Shown here: positions 1 through 59,765 of the stretch, piece by piece
How the letters are laid out: each line of letters opens with the position of its first letter
How positions within the stretch are numbered: position 1 is the stretch's first letter
Origin: a plasmid
Length of the DNA stretch: 64,000 nt
Direction: 5' to 3' (one strand)
Sequence record: OW967251.1
Translations under genes and position numbers: made by a program
Notes under the pieces: model-generated
The model's database searches: none
What the model was told of the DNA's origin: nothing
Seen by the model: only the letters and a program-made list of their open reading frames with translations

Positions 1-1378
1 TACTGGGTTAGCCACCACAGCGACACTTAACGTCGCCAGAGCCTCGCTGATGAAAGCTCCCAGGCTGGCCGCAGCATCAGCCGACAGAGTAAAACCTCCA
101 CGTGACGCAGTTGACCAGGTCAGAGGAATAGCAAAAGGTGCCGCTGTAGCCGGGATACCCCTGACAGCCTGAATCTCTGAAGATTTCAGTTTATCTGCGG
201 CTGTACAACGGGCCTGCAGCGCTTTTGCTTTTTCAGCAATGGCTCTGGCCTCCTCAGCGGCTTTCGCTGCTGCATCAGCCTGTCGTTTTTTTTCTGCCGC
301 AGCGGCGGCTGCTGCTTCCGCCTCCTGGCGTTTACGTTCAGCAGCGGCGGCTTGTTCTGCGGACGCTAATGCAGCCTGGGCAGCCTGACGGCGCGTTTCT
401 GCAGCATTATAGGCAGCTGATGCCTGCAGACTGGCCTGCTCAGCGGCCGTTGCCTGACTGGCAAGACTGGTAGCAGCATTTCGTTTGTTCACCGCATCAT
501 TCTGCGCTGCATCAACCTGAGCTTTTGTGATCCCAGATGGATAGAACCGGTATCCCCAGTGGTCATGCTCTTTATTCGAACTGATAACCTCCCATTTTTG
601 GGTACCGTATTGGCCGTTATTATTTAGAGTGAGGCCTTTAATGCTTTGCTGCAGATCCTGATATTTTTTCTCAGCCTGAGTTGCTACTGGTACGGCATCG
701 ATAGCTTCCTTTCGCTTATTCTTCGCTGTATTAAGGGCATTATCTGCCACTGTTTTCAGGCGTGATGCTTCAGCAGTCGCCTGATTCAGATTATTACGCG
801 CATCAGGAACAGTTTGATGTTGACCTGCAGCAGCCGCAGCAGAAATCGCATTCTGACGTTCTTTTTCAGCAGCGGCGGATGCCGCTGCTGTTTTCGCTGC
901 GAATGCTTTTGCAGCCTCTTCTGCTTGCTGTTTTTCCTTAGCTACCTTCTCCGCTCGTGCAGCTTTTTCTGCTTCTGATGGACCTACAGCCACAAAAGCG
1001 CGGGTAGTATGTTCGTTATTACCAGCCCCGGATGATCGGTTTTCCCAGTATCCCATCTGCCCGTTATGCATAACAAGAGACTGTCCCTGTGGCCCCTGCC
1101 CACCCTGACTTCCGCCATTACCGGTAGAAGAACTGCGGACACCATCGAAGCCACTGACAGTTGTTGAGCCTTCCTCAGAGGACACAGTGTGAATCTGCCC
1201 CCGAATATCCGCCATATACCCACCATTACCATCACTGCGAATATTCGAGACATCTGATGCCCGGATTTGCGTCCCACCAAAACTATTAAACTGATTAGCC
1301 ACATCACTGGCAGAAGGAGAGCTAAGGCCTGAGCTCGTAGCACCCTCACCGTTATAGTTAAATCCACCAATCACACAT
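1..1378 (-). CDS. Colicin/klebicin-like bacteriocin, partial. The N-terminal ~460 aa lie in the window and the 3' end runs off the left edge.
   Basis: Manual translation of the minus frame from a GTG near 1376-1378, preceded by an AAGGAA ribosome-binding site. The N-terminus is glycine/serine-rich (IGGFNYNGEGATSSGLSSPSASDV...GNGGSQGGQGPQG), like a colicin translocation domain. It is followed by a long alanine-rich coiled-coil (AEKKRQADAAAKAAEEARAIAEKAKALQA...), like a receptor-binding domain. No stop codon occurs before position 1. The frame is missing from the ORF track because it has a GTG start and runs off the edge. Confidence 0.55.
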
Positions 1379-1485
1379 TTCCTTCTTTTGTTTTTTTTGT
1401 TTTCCAATTTTCTGAAATACGGCGTGCGGTTTATTGCTTCAGGACAGCTATCCGGAGGCTGTTATTAGTTCTCTGCCACGCCAGT

Positions 1486-1519
1486 TACTGCATATAAAAG
1501 CATGTATTTATATACAGTA
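1486..1519 (-). promoter_or_regulatory. Two overlapping LexA (SOS) boxes upstream of the bacteriocin gene.
   Basis: The sequence TACTGCATATAAAAGCATGTATTTATATACAGTA contains two CTG-N10-CAG-type half-palindromes. It is nearly identical in architecture to the colE1 double operator CTGTATATAAAACCAGTGGTTATATGTACAG. It lies ~110-140 nt upstream of the putative start. Confidence 0.6.
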
Positions 1520-1730
1520 TTTTGATGCTGCTCTTGATATACCAGCTCTGTCAATATGTCGTGGTTAACAATATTTTTATTTATTTTCATTCACTTAAAA
1601 ATAACAGCAGAGGTGGACCCGAGGCAGAATGCGGATCATCAGAAAGAAAAAAAACGATTTGAGCTCTGATTCATAGCCCGATAGATTACTTAGTTCCCCC
1701 GAGTGCACGATAAAAAAGAGAGTATTTCTG

Positions 1731-2276
1731 ATGCCATTACCTGAGCGAATGAAACCCGCACGGGTCACCCGTAAACAGATGAAAGAACTGGTCAGTCAGC
1801 TGAATGGCATTCTCGATCACATCGATAACGGGATGGACGAAAACAATGAAGAACTAAAACAGATGATGGCAGACTGGAATGCACAGGTCGTCATACCCTG
1901 CGGGTTCTCTGATTTTCGTGATTTTTCATCCTGGACAAGTGCACTAGATTTCACCAGGATGGCGCTTAATCAGGAAAAATACCTTGATGACTTTACATGG
2001 ACAGAACTGAACGACGTTATCAACTTCATACGCAAAGCAGAAGGTAGTGCATCTGACCACAGCTATGTACTCCAGTTACTGGAGATTAATTTCAGGGCAA
2101 ACCCACTGGATCTCATCTATCACCCTGACTGCTGGTTCAATGATGAAGCATTGTTTCATGCTCGGCTGACTACCGAAGAAATTGGTGGCTACCTGATGAA
2201 AAAATCAGGTCGATGGCTCAACGATGCACCGGATATCCAGCTGGTGTATGCCATCCCCCAGGATATTTATGATTAA
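1731..2276 (+). CDS. Hypothetical 181 aa soluble protein, transcribed divergently from the bacteriocin promoter. An orphan immunity protein is one speculative possibility.
   Basis: Clean ORF with an ATG start. It has no transmembrane segments and is acidic. No recognisable family can be assigned by eye. Confidence 0.45.
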   Translation: MPLPERMKPARVTRKQMKELVSQLNGILDHIDNGMDENNEELKQMMADWNAQVVIPCGFSDFRDFSSWTSALDFTRMALNQEKYLDDFTWTELNDVINFIRKAEGSASDHSYVLQLLEINFRANPLDLIYHPDCWFNDEALFHARLTTEEIGGYLMKKSGRWLNDAPDIQLVYAIPQDIYD

Positions 2277-2490
2277 CCAAGTCACCCTTTACCATAATCC
2301 CTTAATTGTAAGCACCGCCAGAACGGCCTCAGGGCGTTTCTGACGGGAAACTGGCAAAACACCGAAAACCCGCCAGAAACGCGCAGGGGCTGTTTTTACG
2401 GCATGCATGAGTATGCACGCAAGTGCATAGCGCGGAAATTCATGCCATTCAGCCAGGGTAAGTCCTGTTTCCGGCGTTCTTCTGATTCCG

Positions 2491-2838
2491 TTATAAATCT
2501 TTCCAGTCAGGTAATTTATTCACCTTTCGGCGCCACAGATGAAACAGTGCCATCGTCAGGCCAAATAACACGCCCGCAATAAGACTGATTTTGCAAGCGA
2601 ACAGGGGTGGCATCCCCTGGGCCCGCCACACCATCCAGTACATCCACAGTCCGTATCCGACGGAGAAAGAGCCTGCCATCACGCCAAAAACCTGCCAGAA
2701 CGGAGCAAACGGCAGCGGGGGAATGTTTATCCCCAGCCGCCACAACAGTCGTATCAGAAGCGGTGCATAATTGCTTTTCCACATCTTACAGCTGGCCATT
2801 ATCGCCAGCGCCTTTTGTTTCCGCGCTTCAAAATCCAT
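2491..2838 (-). CDS. Hypothetical small inner-membrane protein downstream of finO.
   Basis: 115 aa ORF with 3 predicted hydrophobic helices (LAIMASCKMW..., GVMAGSFSVGYGLWMYWMVW, ISLIAGVLFGLTMALF). Confidence 0.45.
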   Translation of the reverse strand: MDFEARKQKALAIMASCKMWKSNYAPLLIRLLWRLGINIPPLPFAPFWQVFGVMAGSFSVGYGLWMYWMVWRAQGMPPLFACKISLIAGVLFGLTMALFHLWRRKVNKLPDWKDL

Positions 2839-2857
2839 TTCCTCTCCTCGATTGTAT

Positions 2858-3454
2858 TCAGCCAGCTGACTGGCTCCGCATACGCTCAGTTCGCAGGAGT
2901 TCTTTCATCATGCGCTCGCTGGCGTACTGCGCTTCCCCTGCAGTGACGGTCGCGACGGCGTTCCCCTGCAGATCATAGCGGGCGGCTCCCTCCTTCATCC
3001 GGGACAGATAGCCCGCAGACCGGGTCAGACTCTTCAGGCACTTAATCACCTGTTTATGCGACAGCGGCAGGTCACGGTTCACAATGTCGGCAAACAGCTG
3101 TTCGCGCATGCCCGTTGCCAGCAGACGGGGTGAGTTTCCGTCGAACAGCTGTGGCCAGAATGCCTTCAGCGTCATAATGGCCTGTTCCGGCGGCAGCAGG
3201 CGAAGATAACGCACCGGAGGTGGCGTCTTTACCGCTTTAACCGGCACCGGCGCAGCGTTGCGCGCGGCGGCTTCGGCCGCTTGTTTAACCTTCTCAAGTT
3301 TCTCTTTTTTTGCCTTCCAGGCCGGCGGGGACGAGACCACCACGACCTTCTTTCGGCGCACCACACCAGGAGCAGGGGTTGCCTCTGCGGGGGCCGTACT
3401 GTTCTCCGCCGGTTTTCGTTTCAGGCTCAGTACAGGGCGTTTTTCTTCACTCAT
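2858..3454 (-). CDS. finO: FinO, the fertility-inhibition RNA chaperone.
   Basis: Similar to F FinO (EKRPVLTLKRK..., PPxWKxKKxKL, [21 protein letters not shown] versus AIMTLKAFWPQLFDGNSPRLLA). It is the last gene after traX, as in F. The likely start is MSEEKRPV. Confidence 0.85.
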   Translation of the reverse strand: MSEEKRPVLSLKRKPAENSTAPAEATPAPGVVRRKKVVVVSSPPAWKAKKEKLEKVKQAAEAAARNAAPVPVKAVKTPPPVRYLRLLPPEQAIMTLKAFWPQLFDGNSPRLLATGMREQLFADIVNRDLPLSHKQVIKCLKSLTRSAGYLSRMKEGAARYDLQGNAVATVTAGEAQYASERMMKELLRTERMRSQSAG

Positions 3455-13800: not shown

Positions 13801-16650
13801 TTACCTTTTACCATCAAGATAATCCTTTTGAATTTTCGCCGCTTTTGCCTCTAACTCAGTAGGCGAGTCAGCTCCTGGTAAAGATTTCACCTTACTCTTT
13901 CTTTCATTATAATCACCTTTAAACTCATTTGCTTTTGTTTTATGGTCCTTTTCCATTTCAGTATTCTCATTTTTCACCTCTGCGCCTTGCCGTTGTATGT
14001 TTTCGCGGGTTTCCTGCTGCTGTTGTTTATTCTCTGTAATCATCCCACCAACTTTCTGATCCACATTATCCTTAATACCCGCATCTTGCGTCATAGCATC
14101 GATACGACCAGAATTTTGTCGGTAGTCGGCCATTACCGATCCATTGTCACCACCACCTGACACCCCAGCCATATTCTGTCCAATGCTTTCACGACCCTGT
14201 TGATACGCAGCATCAACCCTGGGTTCTACCTGCTCTTTGACGAATTCACGCGCCAGGGCTTCACGCTGCGCCGCAATTTCAGGAGAACTGGTATTGGTCA
14301 GAATGGCCTCTGCATCCTGTGGAGCACGATGCTGAACAAAGTTCGCAAACTGCTGAGTCAGGTTTTCGTTCATCTGGCCAGTCATGCTCTCTGTGCGTGA
14401 CGCCATCTCACTGTACTCATGGCTGCGTGTCCGGCTGCTTGTATACTGGTCATAGCTGTTTTTGGCACTGGAGAGTGACGCGGCAAACTGGTCAACACGC
14501 GAGCTGGCATTATTATCGGTAATGTTGCCCGATGTGGTGGTTTTGCGGCTGGTAAAGTAATCGGATGCTTCCTTAAAGTCTTTGGCCGCCTGACTACTGG
14601 TATCATGTCGGCTGTCATTCGATTCACGACCGGAAGTGCCAACATTATCTGTGTTACCCGAGCTGTGGGTCCAACCCGCACTGCCTTTAACTCCGGCCTC
14701 AGCAGATAACCCAGTTCCCCATTTACCTAGCTTACCAAACAGCTGATCCCCTGAACTCCACTTACCAGATCCGTATAAATCAACGCCCTGCGTACTTTTA
14801 GCTGAATCATCCATCAACTGCTGGAAAGACTCCTCATTACTGATGTTGTTGGCTTTCGCATTAGCAACAACCGCATTCCACATCTTGCTTCTGGCCATCG
14901 AGTCCTGCGAAGACTCGGTAGTATCAGCTCCGGTCGTTGTTGAGGCGCTGTTCCCTTTATTGGTACCAAATTGCTGCAGACTATTCCAGGCACTTGTCAC
15001 GCTGCTGTTATAGCCATGCAGCGCGCTTTCGGCCTGGACATCAGCCTCACGGGCCATCTGTTGCTGCGCACTGGCTATCTGACGACCGACGTTGATATCC
15101 ACCGGCAGTTTTGACATTGCACCACCACTGTCCCAGACCATCGATCCATCCCTCGTCTGCGTGCTAATGCCCCCATTCGCCAGCTGCCGTGACATCTGTC
15201 CGAAACTGGTTGTACTGTTGGTACCCCAGCTGTAGCCGCTGACGTTCTCCATCTGCATGTTGGCGAAAGAGTAATTGCCGTCCACCACGCCGGAGGCAGC
15301 CTGCGATGTTGCACTGAGCCCCGATGAAGAAAAATGGCTGTAGGCACTGGAGAAGGCTGCTCCCATGCTCTTCACGATCCCCCACGACAAAGGCGGTATC
15401 ATCACGGCAATATAGCCCGCGGTGGTCGCAATATCCGAGTTTTTGAGCTGAACCTGCGACAACTCAGAGAGAACGACTGGGACGCCATTTTGCTTCGCAT
15501 AGTAGGCCATTGCGCTGTTCAGGATGGCGAACAGTAATGGCCACGTCTGCAGCCAGATAAGCGCAAACACATACCCCTTTAGCACCTGCAGAGTCATCAT
15601 ATTAAACATGGCGGCCATCACCATGATCGGGAACATCCCAATCATTATCCCCATGATAACGGTCTGCATCAGCGGAAGTGTGCGAAGCGCCTGGTGCCCC
15701 ATTGTGGCCTGTGCCAGCCGCTGCTTTTCAAGGGATGATGTGTTAGCCATATTGACCAGACTGGCGGTGTCCCCGCTGCGGGCCGCATAACTCTGGATCC
15801 CACTGCGCAGGGCGTTCATCGTGACGTTCTGGCGGATAATCTGCCCGGCGCTCTGTCCCGAGCTGTAGAAGTAATTGTAGCTGTCGCCAATCATCTGGCT
15901 GAAAAGCAGATCGGGATTAGGTTTGCCGCCAAACAGCTGACGAACATAGTAGTTCCAGGTTTTACCGCCTGTCTGAGTATCCAGCACGAGAGCCGATTTC
16001 AGATCCCGTGAGGCCTCCTCGCATGTCTGGAACTGGTTGTTTTTGTCAAACACGCCACGCAGTGGACTCGGGTTTGCAAAAATCAGGGTATACGGATCAG
16101 GTGAATTCAGTAATTCCTCAAAAGAGTACTTATGATTGAGGAAAATATCGCCCATCACACAGTTTTGTACGTAATCGGAAAACAGCGTCGTAATCTGAGG
16201 ATTTTGTGACAAAAAATCCGTACTTTTCGCGACCAGATTACTGCCAAATAACATCCCCGTTTTACTGTACGTGACACTGTCCGGCAGAGCGAAGACCATC
16301 TCATAACTCTGGATAAGCGCGTTTCCTGCCCGTGTTGTCAGCGACGCCGGAATCGCCAGACCAATAGGCACATTATCGACTTCATAGACCTGCGCAACGT
16401 TACTGTAATCGATGATCTGCACAGGGGTACGAATGACAACCAGCATAGAGACCAGGGTGAGGGAAAAGACCCAGCCAATAAGGTCCATTACGTTGTGTTT
16501 TTTTACCCAGTTCCCCGCCACAATGAGTACCGAGATGGCGATACACATCTTTTCTATAGTCGACCATGTGCTGGTCCCCATAAACGCCGCAATCGCGTTC
16601 AGGTTGCCCCGTAACCAGTCGCCGCCAGCAATGGCATATATCTCAAGCAT
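13801..16650 (-). CDS. traG: TraG (F-type), involved in mating-pair stabilisation and entry exclusion.
   Basis: 949 aa. The N-terminus MLEIYAIAGGDWLRGNLNAIAAFMG is F-TraG-like. It has an N-terminal polytopic domain and a large C-terminal periplasmic domain. Confidence 0.95.
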   Translation of the reverse strand: MLEIYAIAGGDWLRGNLNAIAAFMGTSTWSTIEKMCIAISVLIVAGNWVKKHNVMDLIGWVFSLTLVSMLVVIRTPVQIIDYSNVAQVYEVDNVPIGLAIPASLTTRAGNALIQSYEMVFALPDSVTYSKTGMLFGSNLVAKSTDFLSQNPQITTLFSDYVQNCVMGDIFLNHKYSFEELLNSPDPYTLIFANPSPLRGVFDKNNQFQTCEEASRDLKSALVLDTQTGGKTWNYYVRQLFGGKPNPDLLFSQMIGDSYNYFYSSGQSAGQIIRQNVTMNALRSGIQSYAARSGDTASLVNMANTSSLEKQRLAQATMGHQALRTLPLMQTVIMGIMIGMFPIMVMAAMFNMMTLQVLKGYVFALIWLQTWPLLFAILNSAMAYYAKQNGVPVVLSELSQVQLKNSDIATTAGYIAVMIPPLSWGIVKSMGAAFSSAYSHFSSSGLSATSQAASGVVDGNYSFANMQMENVSGYSWGTNSTTSFGQMSRQLANGGISTQTRDGSMVWDSGGAMSKLPVDINVGRQIASAQQQMAREADVQAESALHGYNSSVTSAWNSLQQFGTNKGNSASTTTGADTTESSQDSMARSKMWNAVVANAKANNISNEESFQQLMDDSAKSTQGVDLYGSGKWSSGDQLFGKLGKWGTGLSAEAGVKGSAGWTHSSGNTDNVGTSGRESNDSRHDTSSQAAKDFKEASDYFTSRKTTTSGNITDNNASSRVDQFAASLSSAKNSYDQYTSSRTRSHEYSEMASRTESMTGQMNENLTQQFANFVQHRAPQDAEAILTNTSSPEIAAQREALAREFVKEQVEPRVDAAYQQGRESIGQNMAGVSGGGDNGSVMADYRQNSGRIDAMTQDAGIKDNVDQKVGGMITENKQQQQETRENIQRQGAEVKNENTEMEKDHKTKANEFKGDYNERKSKVKSLPGADSPTELEAKAAKIQKDYLDGKR

Positions 16651-35885: not shown

Positions 35886-36572
35886 TTATAACAATCTGTT
35901 AACATGCCGAGTGATAATATCCCTGACATTTTTCATTACCGGTTCCAACAGCTCACTTAGATGAAGAACGATGAAGGCATCATCACGACTACTAATATTA
36001 AGCTTGGTTAGTATTTGACTGCTTTTATTTCTGGAAGATCCGTTTTCCAGTCCAAGAAACTGCCCCATAATCTTGTGACTTGCACCGCCTGCATAAAACC
36101 CAAAAAAATCATACTCACTTTTATCAAGCCTTTTGACAGCCCTCATAAAATTAACGACATCCGCATGCAGGGGAAGAGATCTTGTTATTCTTTTAATGGA
36201 GTTTGATGCCCTTCCAAACTTCCATAAAAAGTGGACAGCACCATCACTGACAAATTCCTCGATCATAAAATCAAATTGCTTTCCATTGATATAAATACAT
36301 CTTTCAATATGGAAGTTAGATTGTTCAATTTGAATCAGTAGTTCTAACTCTCGAAGTCCAAGAAAGGTGTCAGTACCAATCAGTTCCTCCCAACTTCGTT
36401 CGGACTGCAAAGCGCCCCCGAACTCATACAAAAATGCTGAATTGAATGCCGGAAATTCTCCTGACTGATTATGAATACAAACCGGGAAAGAATAGTGCAT
36501 GATGAGCGCCTCAAGAGAAGAAGCGAGGGATTGACGGCAGGTGTCTTTTTCATTACGATCCATCGGATACAT
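35886..36572 (-). CDS. traJ: TraJ, the transfer activator.
   Basis: An internal MYPMDR start matches the F TraJ N-terminus. The locus is AT-rich and divergent, as is typical for traJ. Confidence 0.8.
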   Translation of the reverse strand: MYPMDRNEKDTCRQSLASSLEALIMHYSFPVCIHNQSGEFPAFNSAFLYEFGGALQSERSWEELIGTDTFLGLRELELLIQIEQSNFHIERCIYINGKQFDFMIEEFVSDGAVHFLWKFGRASNSIKRITRSLPLHADVVNFMRAVKRLDKSEYDFFGFYAGGASHKIMGQFLGLENGSSRNKSSQILTKLNISSRDDAFIVLHLSELLEPVMKNVRDIITRHVNRLL

Positions 36573-36579
36573 AGAGGCC

Positions 36580-36670
36580 TCCTTGTTAGGTCTACTATGG
36601 GCAGTAGGTATGAGAAGGTGAATGCTTCTCATACCTGCGAAACTCAAATTTTCACTTACTATTTGAAAAA
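36580..36670 (+). ncRNA. finP: Putative finP antisense RNA region in the traJ leader. This is positional only.
   Basis: FinO is present. F-like plasmids encode finP antisense to the traJ 5' UTR. No structure was verified here. Confidence 0.2.
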
Positions 36671-50987: not shown

Positions 50988-51218
50988 TCAGTTAAATGCG
51001 CGTTTCAGTTCCAGCGTGCGGAGTACCTGCCCGAGGGCGGTATTTTTCATCGCGGGGATGTGGACACCGCGCCCTTTGCGGTGACTTCTGGCGATATGAC
51101 GCCCGAAAGCTCTGAGAGCGGGATCAATCTCCGGTGCGGTGATATCTGCGCGCAGAATGCGCGAATGACGACGGGGCTTTACAGCGCCTGCGGAAGGTGA
51201 AAAAATAGAAACGATCAT
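50988..51218 (-). CDS. Hypothetical (76 aa).
   Basis: ORF. Confidence 0.35.
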   Translation of the reverse strand: MIVSIFSPSAGAVKPRRHSRILRADITAPEIDPALRAFGRHIARSHRKGRGVHIPAMKNTALGQVLRTLELKRAFN

Positions 51219-51309
51219 AGAGTTGACTCCTTATGGTAGTTAACGAAGCCGGAAAAACCGTTCGTGCGATTTTTACGGCGTGGGAGAAGCAGGGTTTACC
51301 CTGCTTTTT

Positions 51310-53850: not shown

Positions 53851-54109
53851 GCACGGCACTACCCGAAGCGATGCAGGAGATACAACATGAGGTCCCCTGT
53901 CGCGGTTTACGAGCGCAGGGAGAAAAGCAGAAGCTGGCATCGCGACGCGATGGCTGCGTATAAAGGCCGCAGACCGGAGGGAGGGGGCCGGACAAAGCGG
54001 AGCCAGCGGCAAAGACAAGCCGGCGACGTCCTTATCCGGTGTTGATGGCATGGCGCCAGTTTATCAGCTGCCCGTCACCAGGCGGCCCGGGAGACCTCTC
54101 GTTCTGAGC

Positions 54110-54340
54110 TTATCGGCGATCTGGTTTATCACTGGCCACGGAGATACCAATGTACATACCGCTTCCCCAGATAATCTGAGAGAGCACAAATAGCCACAGA
54201 GGGACGTCAACAATCAACAGCGGAAGAAGAGCAACCGTCACGATTAAAATCAGGCGGCTACCGAATTGCCGGCGCACCGGTTCAGCGGCGTCAACCGGGA
54301 CGCCTGCATATCGCAGAACCTGCCTTAAACCCGTATTCAT
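54110..54340 (-). CDS. Hypothetical small membrane protein (77 aa).
   Basis: This is the C-terminal part of a 182 aa track ORF. The upstream part overlaps the intron RNA. Confidence 0.3.
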   Translation of the reverse strand: MNTGLRQVLRYAGVPVDAAEPVRRQFGSRLILIVTVALLPLLIVDVPLWLFVLSQIIWGSGMYIGISVASDKPDRR

Positions 54341-54454
54341 AATCACTCCACTCAGAATAAATGCACTGTACTTCAGTATATTACATTTTATTAGATAACG
54401 ATTCTCCGGACTGGCAGCGATCCTTCTGAAATTTCCCTGTTTTTGCAGGAACAG

Positions 54455-56425
54455 CAAATGGTTACAGACAACGGCAACAAGATGACTTGAATAAAAACGG
54501 CCTCCGCAAAATAATGTCGCGGTAGGGATACCCGTTACCGGATACCCCCCGCACAGATCCCGGCGTGCGCGATTTACGCACCGGGCTCCTGCCTCGGGTG
54601 TCTGGCGGTGAACCGCTCCACAGGCCATGGATGAAGAACCCGAACCCTTGGTAGCCATGCGGCTGCCAGTTTGTTTGCTTTCGTCCAGGTCGTATCATCC
54701 TTCTGGCTCCTGCGCCTGAGCGCCCGGCGCCAGAGGTTTGTTACGTGTGTCCTGAACTTCTGCATGGTGGGGAAGTTGCCCGGTACCGAGTGATAGTTCA
54801 GGTATCCCTGAACCACTCTCCTGAGCCATTTTCCCTGTTCGGGGATTGAGTAATGCCAGCGCCTTCGCAGACCGTCTTTGATGGCTTTCAGAGTTGCCGT
54901 CATCCGATCCCGGCGGGTCTTTCGTATCAGCATGAACCTGCCGTTGCGATCTTTCCCGCTGATGTGCGTGAACCCGAGGAAGTTGAACGTTTCTGGTTTG
55001 CCTTTTCCCCTGATGGCACGGTTTTCGGCAGCGAAGCGGCCGAACTCCATCAGACGGGTTTTCTCCGGGTGAACCGTGAGTCCGAACTCCCTCAGTCTGC
55101 GCTGCATGGCTATACGGAAGCGCCGGGCATCGTATCGTTTGTCGAACCCGATGACGATGTCATCGGCGTATCTGACCATTACCACATTGCCTGTGGCATA
55201 GCGACGTCGCCACTGATGCGCCCACAGATCGAAGACGTAGTGGAGGTATATGTTTGCCAGCAGCGGTGAGATGACCGCACCCTGTGGGGTGCCTTCCTCC
55301 GTTGCTCGCCATTGACCCTCCTCCGACGTCCCGGCTGTGAGCCACTTACGTATGAGCCTGATTACCCTCCGGTCGCCGATCCGATGCTCTGTGAACCTGA
55401 TCAGCCATTCGTGGCTCACCCTGTCGAAGAACTGACTGATGTCGGCATCCAGTACCCAGTTTACGTTAGTGCGTACCAGCCCTGTGGCCAGTGCGTCCAG
55501 TGCATCGTGCTGGCTTCGCCCGGGTCTGAACCCGTATGAGAACCCCATAAAGTCGTTTTCATAGACTGCGTTCAGGATTTTCACCAGCGCATACTGGACG
55601 ATCTTGTCCTCCAGCGAGGCGATGCCGAGCGGGCGTTGTTTTCCATCCGCTTTTGGGATGTAGTGACGCCTGCCGGGCTGCGCCCTGTAGCTGCCCTGAT
55701 GTAGCCTCCGGTGCAGATCTGTTATGTTGTTCTTCATGTTTCCGGCGTAGTCCATCCACCTGATGCCATCCACTCCGGCGGCCGCTTTCCTGCTCAGGGA
55801 GAGGAATGCGGCTTCCAGTGCTTCGACTGTCAGCAGGTGGAACAATGCTGTAAACCGTTCTTTCTTCCGCTGCTTCGCAGCTTCCCGCACGCGTGACAGC
55901 CTCTGTGACATGCTTTCCCGGCTCTGTGTCCGGCGCATGTGTGGCTGTTCCGCGTTCCCCTTGGCCCCGCTCCTTCGCTCCACTGACTCCGCTCCTTTCG
56001 GGTTGTTCGCCTGCTTCGCCGCTACTATGAGCGAGTCCGACTTCTCCTCTCCGTACATCACCGGCTATGACTCCTCGTCTTCCCGGTGCGGGCCATCTCC
56101 GACACTGGCAGATGGTCAGAGGGGAGATCTCCCGGTTCCCGCGTAGAGATCGTATTGACATGCCAGGGTCTCAGACCCCGCCGGGTCCATGTGGCACTCG
56201 CAGTATCGCACCCTATGATGTTGCCTTCCGTTAACAGTACAACGTCGGCACCCGGTAATTTAATATACATTTCGTGGCTCAATGGCTGGCCTGTCAACAC
56301 CCCTGTCAACGCTTCGCCCCATACCTCGCGGTATGCAACGCATGACTCGGGGACCTTGTGGATTGCTGGTCCTTCAATGGTCGGGGACTTTCACCCCTTG
56401 ATCTCTAACCGGTCTCCCGGCGCAC
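54455..56425 (-). mobile_element. Bacterial group II intron (ribozyme plus intron-encoded protein).
   Basis: The minus strand begins GTGCGCCGGGAGACCGGTTAGAGATCAAGGGGTGAAAGTCCCC, a typical domain I 5' end. A domain V-like hairpin lies near 54520-54556. The 3' boundary is approximate. Confidence 0.7.
54574..56061 (-). CDS. Group II intron reverse transcriptase/maturase.
   Basis: Reverse-transcriptase motifs are present: AAGVDG, RRHYIPKADGKQRPLGIASLEDKIVQ, FSYGFRPGRSQHDA, YADDIVI and a C-terminal maturase X domain. No HNH domain is seen. The true start is probably internal. Confidence 0.9.
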   Translation of the reverse strand: MMYGEEKSDSLIVAAKQANNPKGAESVERRSGAKGNAEQPHMRRTQSRESMSQRLSRVREAAKQRKKERFTALFHLLTVEALEAAFLSLSRKAAAGVDGIRWMDYAGNMKNNITDLHRRLHQGSYRAQPGRRHYIPKADGKQRPLGIASLEDKIVQYALVKILNAVYENDFMGFSYGFRPGRSQHDALDALATGLVRTNVNWVLDADISQFFDRVSHEWLIRFTEHRIGDRRVIRLIRKWLTAGTSEEGQWRATEEGTPQGAVISPLLANIYLHYVFDLWAHQWRRRYATGNVVMVRYADDIVIGFDKRYDARRFRIAMQRRLREFGLTVHPEKTRLMEFGRFAAENRAIRGKGKPETFNFLGFTHISGKDRNGRFMLIRKTRRDRMTATLKAIKDGLRRRWHYSIPEQGKWLRRVVQGYLNYHSVPGNFPTMQKFRTHVTNLWRRALRRRSQKDDTTWTKANKLAAAWLPRVRVLHPWPVERFTARHPRQEPGA

Positions 56426-56426
56426 A

Positions 56427-56442
56427 CTGTATATATATACAG
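56427..56442 (+). promoter_or_regulatory. Perfect LexA box (SOS operator) of the umuDC-like operon.
   Basis: CTGTATATATATACAG lies 21 nt upstream of the umuD-like ATG. The intron 5' end lies 1-2 nt away. Confidence 0.8.
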
Positions 56443-56463
56443 CTTTAAGCGAGGAAAAAAACG

Positions 56464-56889
56464 ATGAAGTTCATTCCTGCAGTATCAGAAGCCAGCATAG
56501 TAAAAATTCCTTTGTTCACAGAGCGATGCCCTGCGGGTTTTCCGTCACCGGCATCAGACTACACTGAGTCTGAACTGGATCTGAATGAGTACTGCATTCA
56601 CCGGCGCCACTCCACCTATTTTGTCAGGGCGATTGGCAACTCAATGACTGATATTGGCCTCTATTCCGGCGATCTGTTGGTCGTGGATAAAGCAGAACAG
56701 CCGCGGCACGGGGATATTGTTATCGCGGAAATTGAGGGTGAATTTACGGTAAAACGCCTGCTTCTGACGCCGCGGCCAGCCCTGCAGGCGATGAACCCGG
56801 ACTTCCCTTCCCTGTACCCGGATCCGGAAACGCTGCAAATTTTCGGCGTGGTGACAGCCTTCATTCATAAAACCCGGAGGGCAGACTGA
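56464..56889 (+). CDS. umuD: UmuD/MucA/ImpA-like SOS mutagenesis protein (S24 LexA-like peptidase).
   Basis: A C-G cleavage-site context and an IGNSM...VVDK catalytic Ser/Lys dyad ([21 protein letters not shown]) are present. Confidence 0.88.
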
Positions 56890-58160
56890 TGTTCGCCCTG
56901 GCTGACGTCAACTCCTTCTACGCCAGTTGCGAGAAGGTTTTCAGGCCGGATTTGCGCGGCAAACCTGTCGTCGTTCTCAGTAACAACGATGGCTGCGTTA
57001 TTGCCCGGAGTGCTGAAGCCAAACTGCTGGGTATAAAGATGGGAACCCCCTGGTTCCAGCTCAAAGAGGCGCAGTTTCCTGAAAAATTGTACGTTTTTTC
57101 CAGCAACTACGAGCTCTACGCGAGCCTGAGTAACCGTGTGGTCGCCCTGCTGGAAGAGCTGTCGCCCCGCGTCGAACAATACTCAATTGACGAATGTTTC
57201 CTGGATGCCCGGGGAATTGGCCACTGTATGGATCTGGAGGATTTTGGCAGGCAGCTGCGTGGGCATGTTCTCAGTGGAACCGGACTGACGATCGGTGTCG
57301 GCTTCGGCGCCACAAAAACACTGGCCAAATCGGCGCAGTGGGCGTCAAAGGAATGGCCACAATTCAGGGGGGTACTGGCGCTGTCGCCCGAAAATCCACG
57401 CAGAACGGCAAAATTACTCAGCCTGCAGCCGGTGGAAGAAATCTGGGGCGTGGGGAACCGGATAGCGAAAAAGCTGCACGTTATGGGGATCACCACCGCC
57501 CTGCAGCTGTCGCTGACGAACCCCACATTTATCCGGAAAAACTTCAACGTAGTGCTGGAGCGCACGGTACGTGAGCTGAACGGCGAGAGTTGCATTTCAC
57601 TGGAGGAAGCGCCGCCGCCGAAACAGCAGATTGTCTGCAGTCGTAGCTTCGGGCAGCGGATCACCACCTACGAAGAAATGCGCCAGGCCGTCTGCCAGTA
57701 TGCCGAGCGCGCGTCGGAAAAGTTGCGCGGTGAGCGACAGTACTGCCGGCATATCAGCACCTTCATCAAGACATCCCCTTTTGCGGTTAATGAGCCGTAT
57801 TACGGTAACGTGGCCACGGAAAAACTGAACACCCCTACCCGTGACACCCGGGACATTATCGCGGCAGCGGTCAGGTCTCTGGACAGGATCTGGCTCGATG
57901 GCCACCGCTACGCAAAAGCGGGGATAATGCTCAATGATTTCAGTCCGAACGGCGTCGCGCAGCTGAATCTGTTCGATGACGTGCAGCCACGGCCGCACAG
58001 CGATGCGCTGATGAAGGTACTCGACGGCATTAATCATTCCGGACTCGGGAAAGTCTGGTTTGCCGGACGGGGTATTGCGCCGGACTGGCAGATGAAACGG
58101 GAGATGCTGTCACCGGCATATACCACCCGCTGGAAGGAGCTGCCGGTTGCCCGTTTCTGA
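56889..58160 (+). CDS. umuC: UmuC/MucB/ImpB-like Y-family DNA polymerase (Pol V catalytic subunit).
   Basis: Starts [41 protein letters not shown], the canonical UmuC N-terminus. 423 aa. Confidence 0.95.
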
Positions 58161-58238: not shown

Positions 58239-58452
58239 ATGACAAACATCATTCTGTGTGATGTGACTGCCAGCGTCTGAGAACTTAAAAACGATCCGGT
58301 GGCCACCGCCAGTGCCGGCGGCGGCTACCCGGTCGCGATTATTGACCGCAACCGCCCTGTTTTTTATTGTGTGCCCGCGGCTCTGTATGAACAAATGCTC
58401 GATGCGCTGGACGAAAAAGACCTGGTGCAATTGTTGACATCCTCCCCGCCCT
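58239..58452 (+). pseudogene. Phd/YefM-family antitoxin gene with an in-frame TGA at codon 14. Its 3' end runs into the insertion sequence.
   Basis: A strong AGGAGG ribosome-binding site precedes MTNIILCDVTASV-TGA-ELKNDPVATASAGGGYPVAIIDRNRPVFYCVPAALYEQMLDALDEKDLVQLL, which is an antitoxin-like fold signature. No partner toxin gene follows. Confidence 0.5.
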
Positions 58453-59765
58453 GAAGGGCGAGGATTCCTACAGCGTTCAGACCGGAGCCTGACTCGCCTC
58501 GGTGGGTTCCTGCTTCAGCGGGCGGCCCGACTGTATCATCCCTCCACAGGCAAGCACGGCATGTCCTGCCGCTAAAATGTTACGTGCTCCGTTGATATCG
58601 GCGTTCTCGGTATAGCCGCATACCTGACACACGAATTTACTTTGCGTTTGACGGTTTTCTTTCGCCGTATGACCACAGCAGGCACAACGCTGGCTTGTGT
58701 ATGCCGGAGGTATCGCCAGTACCTGACCACCACGCCAGAGCTGCTTGTACTCAAGCTGTCTGCGCATTTCGTACCAGCCCTGATCCAGTATCGAACGGTT
58801 TAAGCCTGATTTGGCTCTGATGTTTCGTCCGGGCCGCTCTGCCGTACCTTTTGCCGATTTCGACATGTTACTGACCTTCAAGTCCTCAATGACGATCATC
58901 GCGTGGTTTTTGCTGATTTCACTGGTGACTTTGTGAAGGTAGTCGCGCCGGATATTGGCAATGTGTGAGTGCAGACGCTGGATTTTTTTCTTCTGTTTCT
59001 GCCAACTGGCACTGAATTTAACTTTGCGGCTTAACTGCCGTTGAAGCATAGCCAGCTTACGCTGGCTTGCTTTGAAGCTGTTGACTGGCTGGTATACGGT
59101 GCCATCAGAAAGCGTGGCAAGTTTCGTGACTCCGGCGTCCAAACCGACCATTGACGCTGCCTTATGAACCTGTTCAGGCACTTCGTATTCCGTCTGGATG
59201 CTAACGTACCATTTGCCGCATGACTGGATGACCGTGACGTTTTTAACTTCGCCGATGACTTCACGGCTATTGCGATAGCGTATCCAGCCCAACTTAGGAA
59301 GCGATATACGATTGTTGGTCTGATCGAGCTTCACGCCTTGCGGGCATCGTTTTGGCCGCGTTTCTTGAAACGAGGGAATGCTGCACGCTTCTGGAAGAAA
59401 TTCTTGTAGCCGCGCTCCAGATCTTTGAGCGACTGCTGCAACGGCAGTGATGGCGTGTCTTTTAGCCACTGGGTATCAGGGTGTGATTTCCACTCAATGA
59501 GCCATGAAGCCATTTTGGTGTAGGAAACATATTTGTTCCCCGCTTCATGGTTTTCGTTTTGAAGCGCCAGCGCACGGTTAAAGACGAAGCGACAAGCCCC
59601 AGCGAAGCGCCGCATATCGCGCTCCTGCTGACCATTCGGTCTTAACTGGAATTTGAAGGCTTGAAGTCGTTTCATGAGGCTATTTTAACCGAAGTTAGTC
59701 GGAAAACCGCGCCTTATATCCCCGCCCTGAAGGTCGGGGTTTTACGGCGCACTGGATAACAGGGG
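58440..59765 (-). mobile_element. IS200/IS605-family element carrying only tnpB (no tnpA).
   Basis: Sub-terminal imperfect hairpins with the shared motif CCCCGCCCTGAAGG(G/T)CG(A/G)GG lie at both ends (about 58445-58466 and 59716-59736). A tnpB gene lies between them. Confidence 0.65.
58477..59675 (-). pseudogene. tnpB: tnpB (an OrfB RNA-guided-nuclease homologue), frameshifted.
   Basis: The N-terminal segment (59331..59675, MKRLQAFKFQLRPNGQQ) and the C-terminal segment (58477..59469, with RuvC-like motifs and the zinc finger CACCGH...CQVCG) are in different frames and overlap. Confidence 0.75.

Follow-up and report, generated by a model that had tools for sequence, protein, structure and literature searches.

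The window analysed here, the whole 64 000-nucleotide stretch of plasmid sequence record OW967251.1, carries on its minus strand a complete group II intron, Kl.pn.I5 (also called Se.ma.I1), whose 5′ end (56425) lies 1 nt from a perfect palindrome predicted to be the LexA operator of a plasmid-borne umuDC operon encoding DNA polymerase V (Pol V). Group II introns are known to home into single genes, insertion sequence (IS) elements, terminators or attC sites. We consider it very likely that Kl.pn.I5 is currently mobile and homes into enterobacterial LexA operators through the complementarity of its exon-binding sequences (EBS) to these operators. On this view copies in the sense orientation would be SOS-inducible, and in the window plasmid Pol V would be uncoupled from its native promoter. 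The analysis establishes the identity, limits and integrity of the intron, its empty site, its fixed register at 38 sites, and the covariation of EBS with the intron-binding sequences (IBS) of the exon. The coordinates of the features are collected in Table 1.

Table 1. Features of the umuDC–intron region of the window
Feature	Coordinates	Strand	Basis and remarks
Divergent hypothetical membrane-like open reading frame (ORF), 76 aa	54110..54340	-	ORF list, annotation; outside the intron, downstream on its strand
Predicted native umuDC promoter, TTGAAT-17-AATAAT (-35 from 54487, -10 to 54515)	54487..54515	+	Consensus scan
Group II intron Kl.pn.I5 (= Se.ma.I1), 1910 nt, 5′ GUGCG to 3′ ...CGAC	54516..56425	-	Empty-site alleles
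Domain 6, bulged branch-point A at 54523, 7 nt from the 3′ splice site	54519..54552	-	Sequence; kept in alignment
Domain 5, GAGCCCGGUGCG-UAAAUC-GCGC[AC]GCCGGGAUCU, AGC triad, 2-nt AC bulge	54555..54588	-	Alignment of 18 relatives
Intron-encoded protein, reverse transcriptase + maturase, 495 aa (WP_004178082.1), annotated ltrA	54574..56061	-	Pfam RVT_1, E=4.6e-47
Ribozyme domains 1–4, 5′ part	56166..56391	-	Rfam RF02005 group-II-D1D4-6, 186.6 bits, E=1e-54, full-length match
Promoter-like site GTGGCA-17-TATGAT, 9/12, antisense in the intron, toward umuD	56191..56219	+	Scan: 2 sites against 1.2 expected by chance
Predicted EBS1, 5′-ACUGUU-3′, loop of hairpin GCCGACGUUG-UACUGUUA-ACGGAAGGC	56233..56238	-	Covariation
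Predicted EBS2, 5′-UGUAUAU-3′, internal loop of domain 1	56263..56269	-	Covariation in relatives
Predicted IBS1, UACAGU	56426-56431	-	Complementary to EBS1
Predicted IBS2, AUAUAUA	56432-56438	-	Complementary to EBS2
Predicted LexA (SOS) box core CTGTATATATATACAG, perfect 16-bp CTGT-N8-ACAG palindrome	56427-56442	.	Sequence
umuD-like gene	56464-56889	+	Pfam Peptidase_S24; annotated umuD
umuC-like gene	56889-58160	+	Pfam IMS, IMS_C, DUF4113; annotated Y-family polymerase

Limits, empty site and identity of the intron

The CTGT-N8-ACAG pattern occurs only twice in the 64-kb window, and one of the two matches is the palindrome beside the intron. It stands 21 nt before the umuD start codon and fits a gammaproteobacterial LexA box placed at an SOS-gene promoter; we treat it as a predicted operator, and both LexA binding and SOS-inducible expression of the operon are likewise predictions.

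The intron was delimited with an empty-site query of 941 nt, in which 54050–54515 was joined to 56426–56900, the 3′ end at 54516 having first been predicted from the anatomy of domains 5 and 6 (D5 and D6). When this query was searched against a plasmid collection, the joined flanks were found uninterrupted in 266 plasmids, the best of which match base for base over 941 of 941 nt at up to 99.8 % identity, and the limits of the intron are thus unambiguous. The empty site reads ...AAAATAAT/ACTGTATATATATACAG... (a slash marks the insertion point here and below), and two empty loci read ...CGCAAAATAAT/ACTGTATATATATACAGCTTTAAG...; in the empty allele, of which CP128678 holds an example, the LexA box 20-mer is TACTGTATATATATACAGCT. 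The boundaries, GUGCG at 56425 and ...GAC at 54516, agree with the 5′ GUGYG and 3′ AY ends of mobile group II introns. An earlier reading of this DNA, made from the letters without database searches (the sequence-only reading), had placed a minus-strand group II intron at 54455–56445, with a GTGCG end at about 56425 abutting the palindrome. The strand and the nature of the element are confirmed by the RF02005 match and the RVT_1 reading frame, and the 5′ end falls where it was proposed; the outer limit at 54455 is 61 nt too far, these 61 nt (54455–54515) being native flank that holds the predicted umuDC promoter. The comparison with empty alleles that the same reading called for puts the insertion point next to the LexA box and not far from it.

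The element and its insertion in pKPN3 are already catalogued. Kl.pn.I5-1 is listed at 119263–121172 of NC_009649 (pKPN3) in the supplement of Leclercq & Cordaux (2012; PMC3522654), where Kl.pn.I5, an element of the Zimmerly bacterial group II intron database, is reported from pKPN3 and from the MGH 78578 chromosome. That interval is 1910 nt long and has the same umuD–ltrA locus and the same protein accessions as the window. The intron of plasmid CP006658, labelled ‘Se.ma.I1 (also called Kl.pn.I5)’ by Ramirez et al. (2019; PMC6764390), is 100 % identical to that of the window, which by locus, length and this identity is Kl.pn.I5/Se.ma.I1. Copies with 99.9–100 % identity are found at more than 30 different sites, and two new insertions have been described in a hospital outbreak (PMC8269217), so that Kl.pn.I5 is evidently active. 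At the locus of the window the occupied allele is present in about 1268 plasmid records versus the 266 with an empty site; about 83 % of the plasmids with the locus thus keep the intron. We note that a 92 %-identical variant of the intron occupies the same plasmid umuDC site in L027, L028 and L044 (K. michiganensis DSM 25444, Pluralibacter gergoviae), with flanks that are 95–97 % identical, and that these values are compatible with independent homing and with old vertical descent alike.

Insertion sites of Kl.pn.I5

Insertion sites were surveyed by exact-protein lookup for chromosomal copies and in species-representative genomes, viral contigs and metagenomes, with the 100 % and the 92–93 % variants pooled, and 38 distinct 5′ flanks were collected from genomes, plasmids and prophages. 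All copies with extracted flanks follow ...ACAGT, which, except at the L010 and L026 sites, ends a CTGT-N8-ACAG-type box. Numbered from the insertion point, an exact CTGT-N8-ACAG stands at positions −17 to −2 in 31 of the 38 sites and CTG-N10-CAG in the same single register in 36; CAG at −4 to −2 is invariant (38/38), A is found at −5 in 36 sites and T at −1 in 35, with C in the other three. On the 3′ side, A occupies +1 in 25 of 28 sites, and positions +2 and +3 are T-rich (22/28 and 19/28 respectively). In L010 the intron occupies a half box, GCAAATATAAACAGT/A, with neither a left arm nor a palindrome, and the L026 site has GTGT instead of CTGT. Elsewhere 36 of 38 distinct LexA-type boxes hold this intron in an identical register, and its adjacency to the box in the window is not a chance arrangement.

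At most sites the intron lies in the sense orientation, between the operator/promoter and the ribosome-binding site of the gene that follows. The downstream genes on the sense strand include umuD(C), dinI, sbmC (GyrI-like), cloacin, a phage UmuD-like gene and small prophage genes of PHROG 3893 and 698. A scan of 5426 complete E. coli genomes found the intron in 219 of them, at 45 chromosomal places; among three E. coli loci opened, one has the canonical chromosomal umuDC box occupied in sense (TACTGTATATAAAAACAGT/A) and one the sbmC box, also in sense. In the third, on the 65.5-kb form of the carbapenemase plasmid pOXA-48 (NZ_CP033880, L123, 65 499 bp, locus 1201–3110) the intron is antisense and directly upstream of the umuD-like and umuC genes, the occupied box being AACTGTTTATACATACAGT/A, and the geometry is that of the window. 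The suggestion of the sequence-only reading that the operator itself served as the homing motif is well supported by the fixed register at the 38 sites, with which the two E. coli boxes and pOXA-48 agree independently.

Some of the copies call for separate comment. Kl.pn.I5 is also found at 100 % identity on contigs of about 2 kb in assemblies of unrelated taxa, namely Streptomyces, Actinomadura, Microbacterium, Kitasatospora, Pedobacter, Arthrobacter, Flammeovirga, Eggerthellaceae and Haemophilus (L015, L016, L018, L020, L021, L022, L024, L030, L032 and L033); the flanks are of Klebsiella type (sbmC, cloacin, dinI), and these contigs look like Klebsiella contamination of the assemblies. In one of them, L021, a plasmid-umuDC 5′ flank is joined to an sbmC 3′ flank, a junction that points to a collapsed-repeat chimera. 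In its outer flanks the L012 copy agrees with the L004 umuDC locus, but its right half-box, TATATATATTCAGT, is that of the L007 site and not the TATATAAAAACAGT of L004. Such a mixed box could have arisen by co-conversion of the 5′ exon during retrohoming or by recombination between intron copies, and if either were true the intron would be able to rewrite operators.

Proposed recognition of the operator by exon-binding sequences

Domain 1 (D1) of Kl.pn.I5 was aligned with those of relatives having 54–72 % protein identity. A conserved D1 hairpin, GCCGACG..[loop]..CGGAAGGC, presents at a fixed offset a loop 6-mer that can pair with the final 6 nt of the 5′ exon, with five or six of six pairs formed, in about 14 lineages with different sequences (loop/exon pairs include CUGUUG/CAACAG, UGUCAC/GUGACA, CUGACC/GGUCAG, UAAGCG/CGCUUA and CCUACA/UGUAGG). 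This covariation identifies the 6-mer as EBS1. That of Kl.pn.I5, ACUGUU, pairs with AACAGT and forms five of six pairs with the window exon, TACAGT. A predicted EBS2, in an internal loop further upstream, is supported by perfect Watson–Crick pairing (7/7), with loop offset and exon register unchanged, in L037 (AGAUGUC/GACAUCU), L058 (GUUCAAA/UUUGAAC) and L026. In Kl.pn.I5 it faces positions −13 to −7, where the AUAUAUA of the window allows six Watson–Crick pairs and one G–U pair. Read on the minus strand, IBS1 and IBS2 together (56426–56438) span the right half and the centre of the LexA box, and the region paired with the two EBS covers 13–14 of the 20 operator positions.

With exon-binding sequences complementary to the operator, the intron would retrohome into LexA operators as follows. 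EBS2 (UGUAUAU) would pair with box positions −13 to −7 (ATATAYA) and EBS1 (ACUGUU) with AACAGT at −6 to −1; the 3′ exon nearly always begins with A, and the intron RNA would reverse-splice exactly 1 nt past the ACAG half-site. At most sites the AT-rich centre is asymmetric (TATAT beside CTGT) and would fit EBS2 on one strand only, orienting the intron in sense to the SOS gene, and this would explain the sense bias. The window box is perfectly symmetric, and its two strands differ only in their flanks (ACAGT/A on the minus strand versus ACAGC/T on the plus strand); here the intron is accordingly antisense to umuDC, as it is in pOXA-48, and lies between the predicted −10 element (AATAAT) and the operator.

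The relatives of Kl.pn.I5 bear on this model in two ways. In a relative with 69 % protein identity EBS1 is shifted by 1 nt (UACUGU) and the intron inserts 1 nt further (ACAGTA/), again in LexA-type boxes, and other relatives of the same ribozyme architecture insert at non-palindromic targets. The 69 % relative was seen in metagenome-assembled genomes labelled beta-proteobacterium and Gemmatimonadales (L036 2635–4564 and 4549–4863; L035), at boxes of the form CTGT/CTGG-N8-ACAG/CCAG, and an integron-integrase-like gene (Phage_int_SAM_4) closely follows one of the two sites, a radical-SAM gene the other. Alphaproteobacterial metagenome-assembled genomes (L045–L051, L075 and L085) contain at least nine copies of a relative with 64 % protein identity, all of them after TTACGGTGAC followed by A or G. 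Its EBS1 matches GUGACA; nothing in the intron was found to pair with the conserved TTACG, and a search for an EBS2 pairing in this TTACGGTGACA-targeting relative found none.

The sequence-only reading had proposed a different mode of recognition, in which the operator is read as a stem–loop in single-stranded DNA, as class C (IIC) introns read terminators or attC sites. The palindrome is perfect and able to fold (−3.4 kcal/mol), the intron lies just 3′ of the box in the geometry of a IIC target, and its protein lacks an endonuclease domain, as do those of class C. However, the hairpin of the window box is no better than those of shuffled sequences (z = −1.3, with 20 of 200 shuffles folding as well), the half box of L010 does not fold (−0.1 kcal/mol) and is occupied nonetheless, a natural case of insertion with the left arm missing, and the targets of relatives with the same architecture are not palindromic. 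Class C introns are moreover described as needing a terminator-type stem–loop and as lacking EBS2 and part of EBS1 (PMC3753933; PMC3522654), whereas here both an EBS1 of 6 nt and an EBS2 of 7 nt show covariation with the exon. Long EBS/IBS pairing without a need for a stem–loop is the very result that the sequence-only reading had said would speak against its proposal, and we regard recognition of a hairpin as very improbable. Membership of class C was rejected on both counts, the stem–loop (L010, the targets of the relatives and the weak hairpin) and the absent EBS2 with shortened EBS1.

It might also be supposed that insertion is promiscuous and that copies persist only beside LexA boxes, where they are harmless or beneficial; the 5′ untranslated regions of accessory SOS genes are plausibly low-cost sites. 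Survivorship of this kind seems scarcely credible, since all 38 sites agree in register to the nucleotide, EBS1 matches the final six exon bases, and the 1-base shift of EBS1 in the 69 % relative goes with a 1-base shift of the insertion point, a correspondence that selection cannot yield.

There are several points that weigh against homing by base pairing, or against the consequences that we attach to it. The left half-site (CTG at −17 to −15) is not part of the paired region and is nonetheless present in 36 of the 38 sites. The assignment of EBS2 is less certain for Kl.pn.I5 itself, its target being an AU repeat, and no convincing EBS2 pairing was found for the closest divergent relative (L035/L036). 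For the intron copy in the window itself no promoter is apparent upstream, the umuDC promoter is predicted from a consensus scan (9/12), and LexA binding, splicing and retrohoming at these sites are all deduced from sequence. The first of these points would be accommodated if base pairing were helped by the host or by the intron protein, with LexA-bound or SOS-state DNA, or protein contacts to the left half-site, selecting genuine operators. The T-rich +2 and +3 positions fit such help, as does the general statement that in other group II introns the protein contacts distal exon positions (PMC3522654). Against it, L010 has no left half-site and L026 has an altered one, and enrichment of the left half is expected anyway if real operators make up most of the genomic matches to the 14-nt paired motif; by our own rough estimate chance matches number about 1–2 per genome, and real operators should dominate. 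We think help of this kind unlikely, and we retain complementarity of the EBS to the operator as the basis of homing.

Ribozyme and encoded protein

Kl.pn.I5 is an intact, small, IIB-like group II intron that has no endonuclease domain and does not belong to class IIC. Its D1–D4 region gives a full-length Rfam match, and the Rfam D5–D6 model (RF00029) gave no match over 54300–56600 at the permissive threshold of E≤1; D5 and D6 were delimited by hand and then checked by covariation. Among 18 relatives D5 shows compensatory changes, with CCGG/CCGG replaced by CCAG/CUGG and G12–C20 by C12–G20. RVT_1 is the sole Pfam domain of the encoded protein, which contains a YADD motif. Its closest matches in the PDB are group II intron reverse transcriptases (RTs), with those of IIC and IIB introns scoring alike (E 1e-43 to 1e-41), and its next-nearest plasmid relatives outside the enterobacteria are rhizobial intron proteins with about 54 % identity over the C-terminal half. 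The protein frame enters D5 (54574–54588), such that the last codons (EPGA) form the D5 5′ strand and the stop codon lies in the D5 loop, a position kept across relatives as UAA, UGA or UAG. The features by which a mobile bacterial group II intron is recognized are thus all present, namely the boundaries, D1–D4, D5 and D6, an RT/maturase in D4, EBS/IBS pairing and mobility. In the literature on classes E and F and on endonuclease-less ORFs, Kl.pn.I5 is not named and no applicable diagnostic was found.

The predicted umuDC promoter and the probable consequences of insertion

The intergenic region of the empty allele contains a single sigma70-like site, the TTGAAT-17-AATAAT of Table 1, which runs right up to the insertion point. 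The intron would thus split the predicted −10 element from the operator and from the predicted start site, and the predicted promoter appears to be displaced by 1910 bp and not replaced. The sequence-only reading had supposed that the native promoter was replaced and that its −35 element now lay inside intron sequence; both predicted elements are intact at 54487–54515, 1.9 kb away. It had also pointed to a TTGATC in the intron as a possible new −35 element. This hexamer exists, one base from the position given (at 56398–56403 and not 56397–56402), but the −10-like hexamer closest to it, which is the box's first TATATA, is 26 nt away, and TTGATC was rejected on this spacing. The remark in the same reading that an intron on the opposite strand does not interrupt the umuDC mRNA is formally true, yet the −10 element is parted from the predicted start and the operator all the same.

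Most occupied promoters are arranged differently, as TTGAnC-17-TACTGT with the left half of the box serving as the −10 element and the predicted start about 6 nt upstream of the intron. Sense copies at such sites would be transcribed only upon cleavage of LexA, and splicing would then be needed for expression of the SOS gene. In the window splicing cannot remove the antisense intron from a umuDC transcript, and the predicted promoter faces 1.9 kb of intron with terminator-like sites on the plus strand. We therefore infer that plasmid Pol V is uncoupled from its native promoter: its expression would be lower, or would rely on a cryptic promoter or one inside the intron.

The GTGGCA-17-TATGAT site at 56191–56219 is a weakly indicated candidate for such a replacement promoter. 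It faces umuD, and outward promoters are documented in IIC-attC introns (PMC3001079). Together with the high proportion of plasmids that keep the intron, and hence tolerate it, this lends some substance to the alternative that umuDC expression is essentially unaffected, either because the working promoter is located in the box or downstream of it, or because an outward promoter within the intron substitutes for the native one. On the other side, the consensus scan found no sigma70-like site between 56404 and 56463, none of the hexamers in the box shows the −10 pattern with A2 and T6, and a hybrid promoter formed from the intron end and the box was sought by scan and by manual check and none was found; in addition, the sole good site of the empty allele ends at the insertion point, and the plus strand of the intron carries terminator-like sites. 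Unaffected expression is accordingly a possibility that we take seriously and nevertheless doubt, and uncoupling of Pol V from its native promoter remains the reading that we prefer.

Host plasmid and neighbouring genes

The window derives from an IncF-type conjugative plasmid of Klebsiella, with matches of 100 % identity to many K. pneumoniae IncFIB/IncFII plasmids, and Rfam matches to AS-traG, FinP and AS-pc01 (15846–15931, 36566–36644 and 51213–51309 respectively) are typical IncF regulatory RNAs. The umuD-like and umuC-like genes form the Pol V operon at 56464–58160 on the plus strand. For the divergent 76-aa ORF on the other side of the intron, Pfam and PHROG searches gave no match; upstream of it, on the minus strand of 54341–54420, is the LexA-half-site-like sequence ATACTGAAGTACAGT, which has the wrong spacing (CTG-N5-CAG) and is probably not an operator. 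The region 3′ of umuC (58299–59675) contains a short ORF of the Phd/YefM antitoxin type, so annotated in related plasmids, and two minus-strand ORFs (58477–59469 and 59331–59675) whose sequence contains a zinc-ribbon CxxC motif and resembles TnpB of IS200/IS605-type elements.

Significance and comparison with known systems

The intron is found in thousands of Klebsiella plasmids, pKPN3-type IncFIB(K)/FII(K) plasmids and pOXA-48 among them. All copies examined adjoin an SOS-type operator, and most lie between that operator and an SOS-regulated gene, the genes of the error-prone Pol V included. In resistant pathogens the intron may therefore affect SOS mutagenesis, the release of colicins, prophage induction or the activity of integrons, and the 13–14 nt homing rule predicts which LexA boxes are vulnerable. 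We put at about even the chances of a broader proposal, that the Kl.pn.I5 lineage and, in other Proteobacteria, its 69 % relative have adopted the SOS operator as their home, that sense copies are induced by damage or antibiotics and rewire SOS genes, and that this is the first retroelement known to target a class of operators. Were this so, the intron RNA, its protein and its retromobility would be switched on by DNA damage or antibiotics, and among the rewired functions would be Pol V (on pKPN3-type and pOXA-48 plasmids), dinI, sbmC, colicins, prophage antirepressors and an integron integrase. Guide sequences that spell a repressor operator would constitute a new targeting strategy, one that gives access to sites that are multi-copy, conserved and horizontally shared, and probably brings the element under stress-inducible control. 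The mechanism itself is probably ordinary EBS/IBS-guided retrohoming, aimed here at a transcription-factor operator, with SOS-linked regulation as a probable result.

The study of Leclercq & Cordaux (2012; PMC3522654) concerns the same element; its homing consensus was drawn from three copies and no free sites were reported, and neither LexA nor SOS occurs in its text. The operator identity of the target, the survey of 38 sites and the splitting of the umuDC promoter from its operator are new here. Full-text searches, with most subscription journals outside their scope, found no publication that links group II intron homing to LexA or SOS boxes.

Several known systems share features with Kl.pn.I5. 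The IIC and IIC-attC introns are similar in using a recurring regulatory or structural DNA motif as target, in encoding a protein without an endonuclease domain and in inserting outside coding sequences, but they read a stem–loop together with short IBS1 and IBS3 and have no EBS2, whereas Kl.pn.I5 reads 13–14 nt through EBS1 and EBS2 and does not need a hairpin. RmInt1 (class D) and the IIE and IIF lineages are like Kl.pn.I5 in having a ribozyme that is small outside the ORF, with EBS1 and EBS2 in D1, a 3′ splice site AY, and a protein with a C-terminal extension after the maturase domain and no endonuclease domain; they home into IS elements or single genes, while Kl.pn.I5 homes into a transcription-factor operator and has its stop codon in the D5 loop. 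DNA-transposase elements that use a short repeated functional motif as a safe landing site offer a further parallel, from which Kl.pn.I5 differs in that its insertion would proceed by RNA-guided reverse splicing and its landing site is the operator of a repressor.

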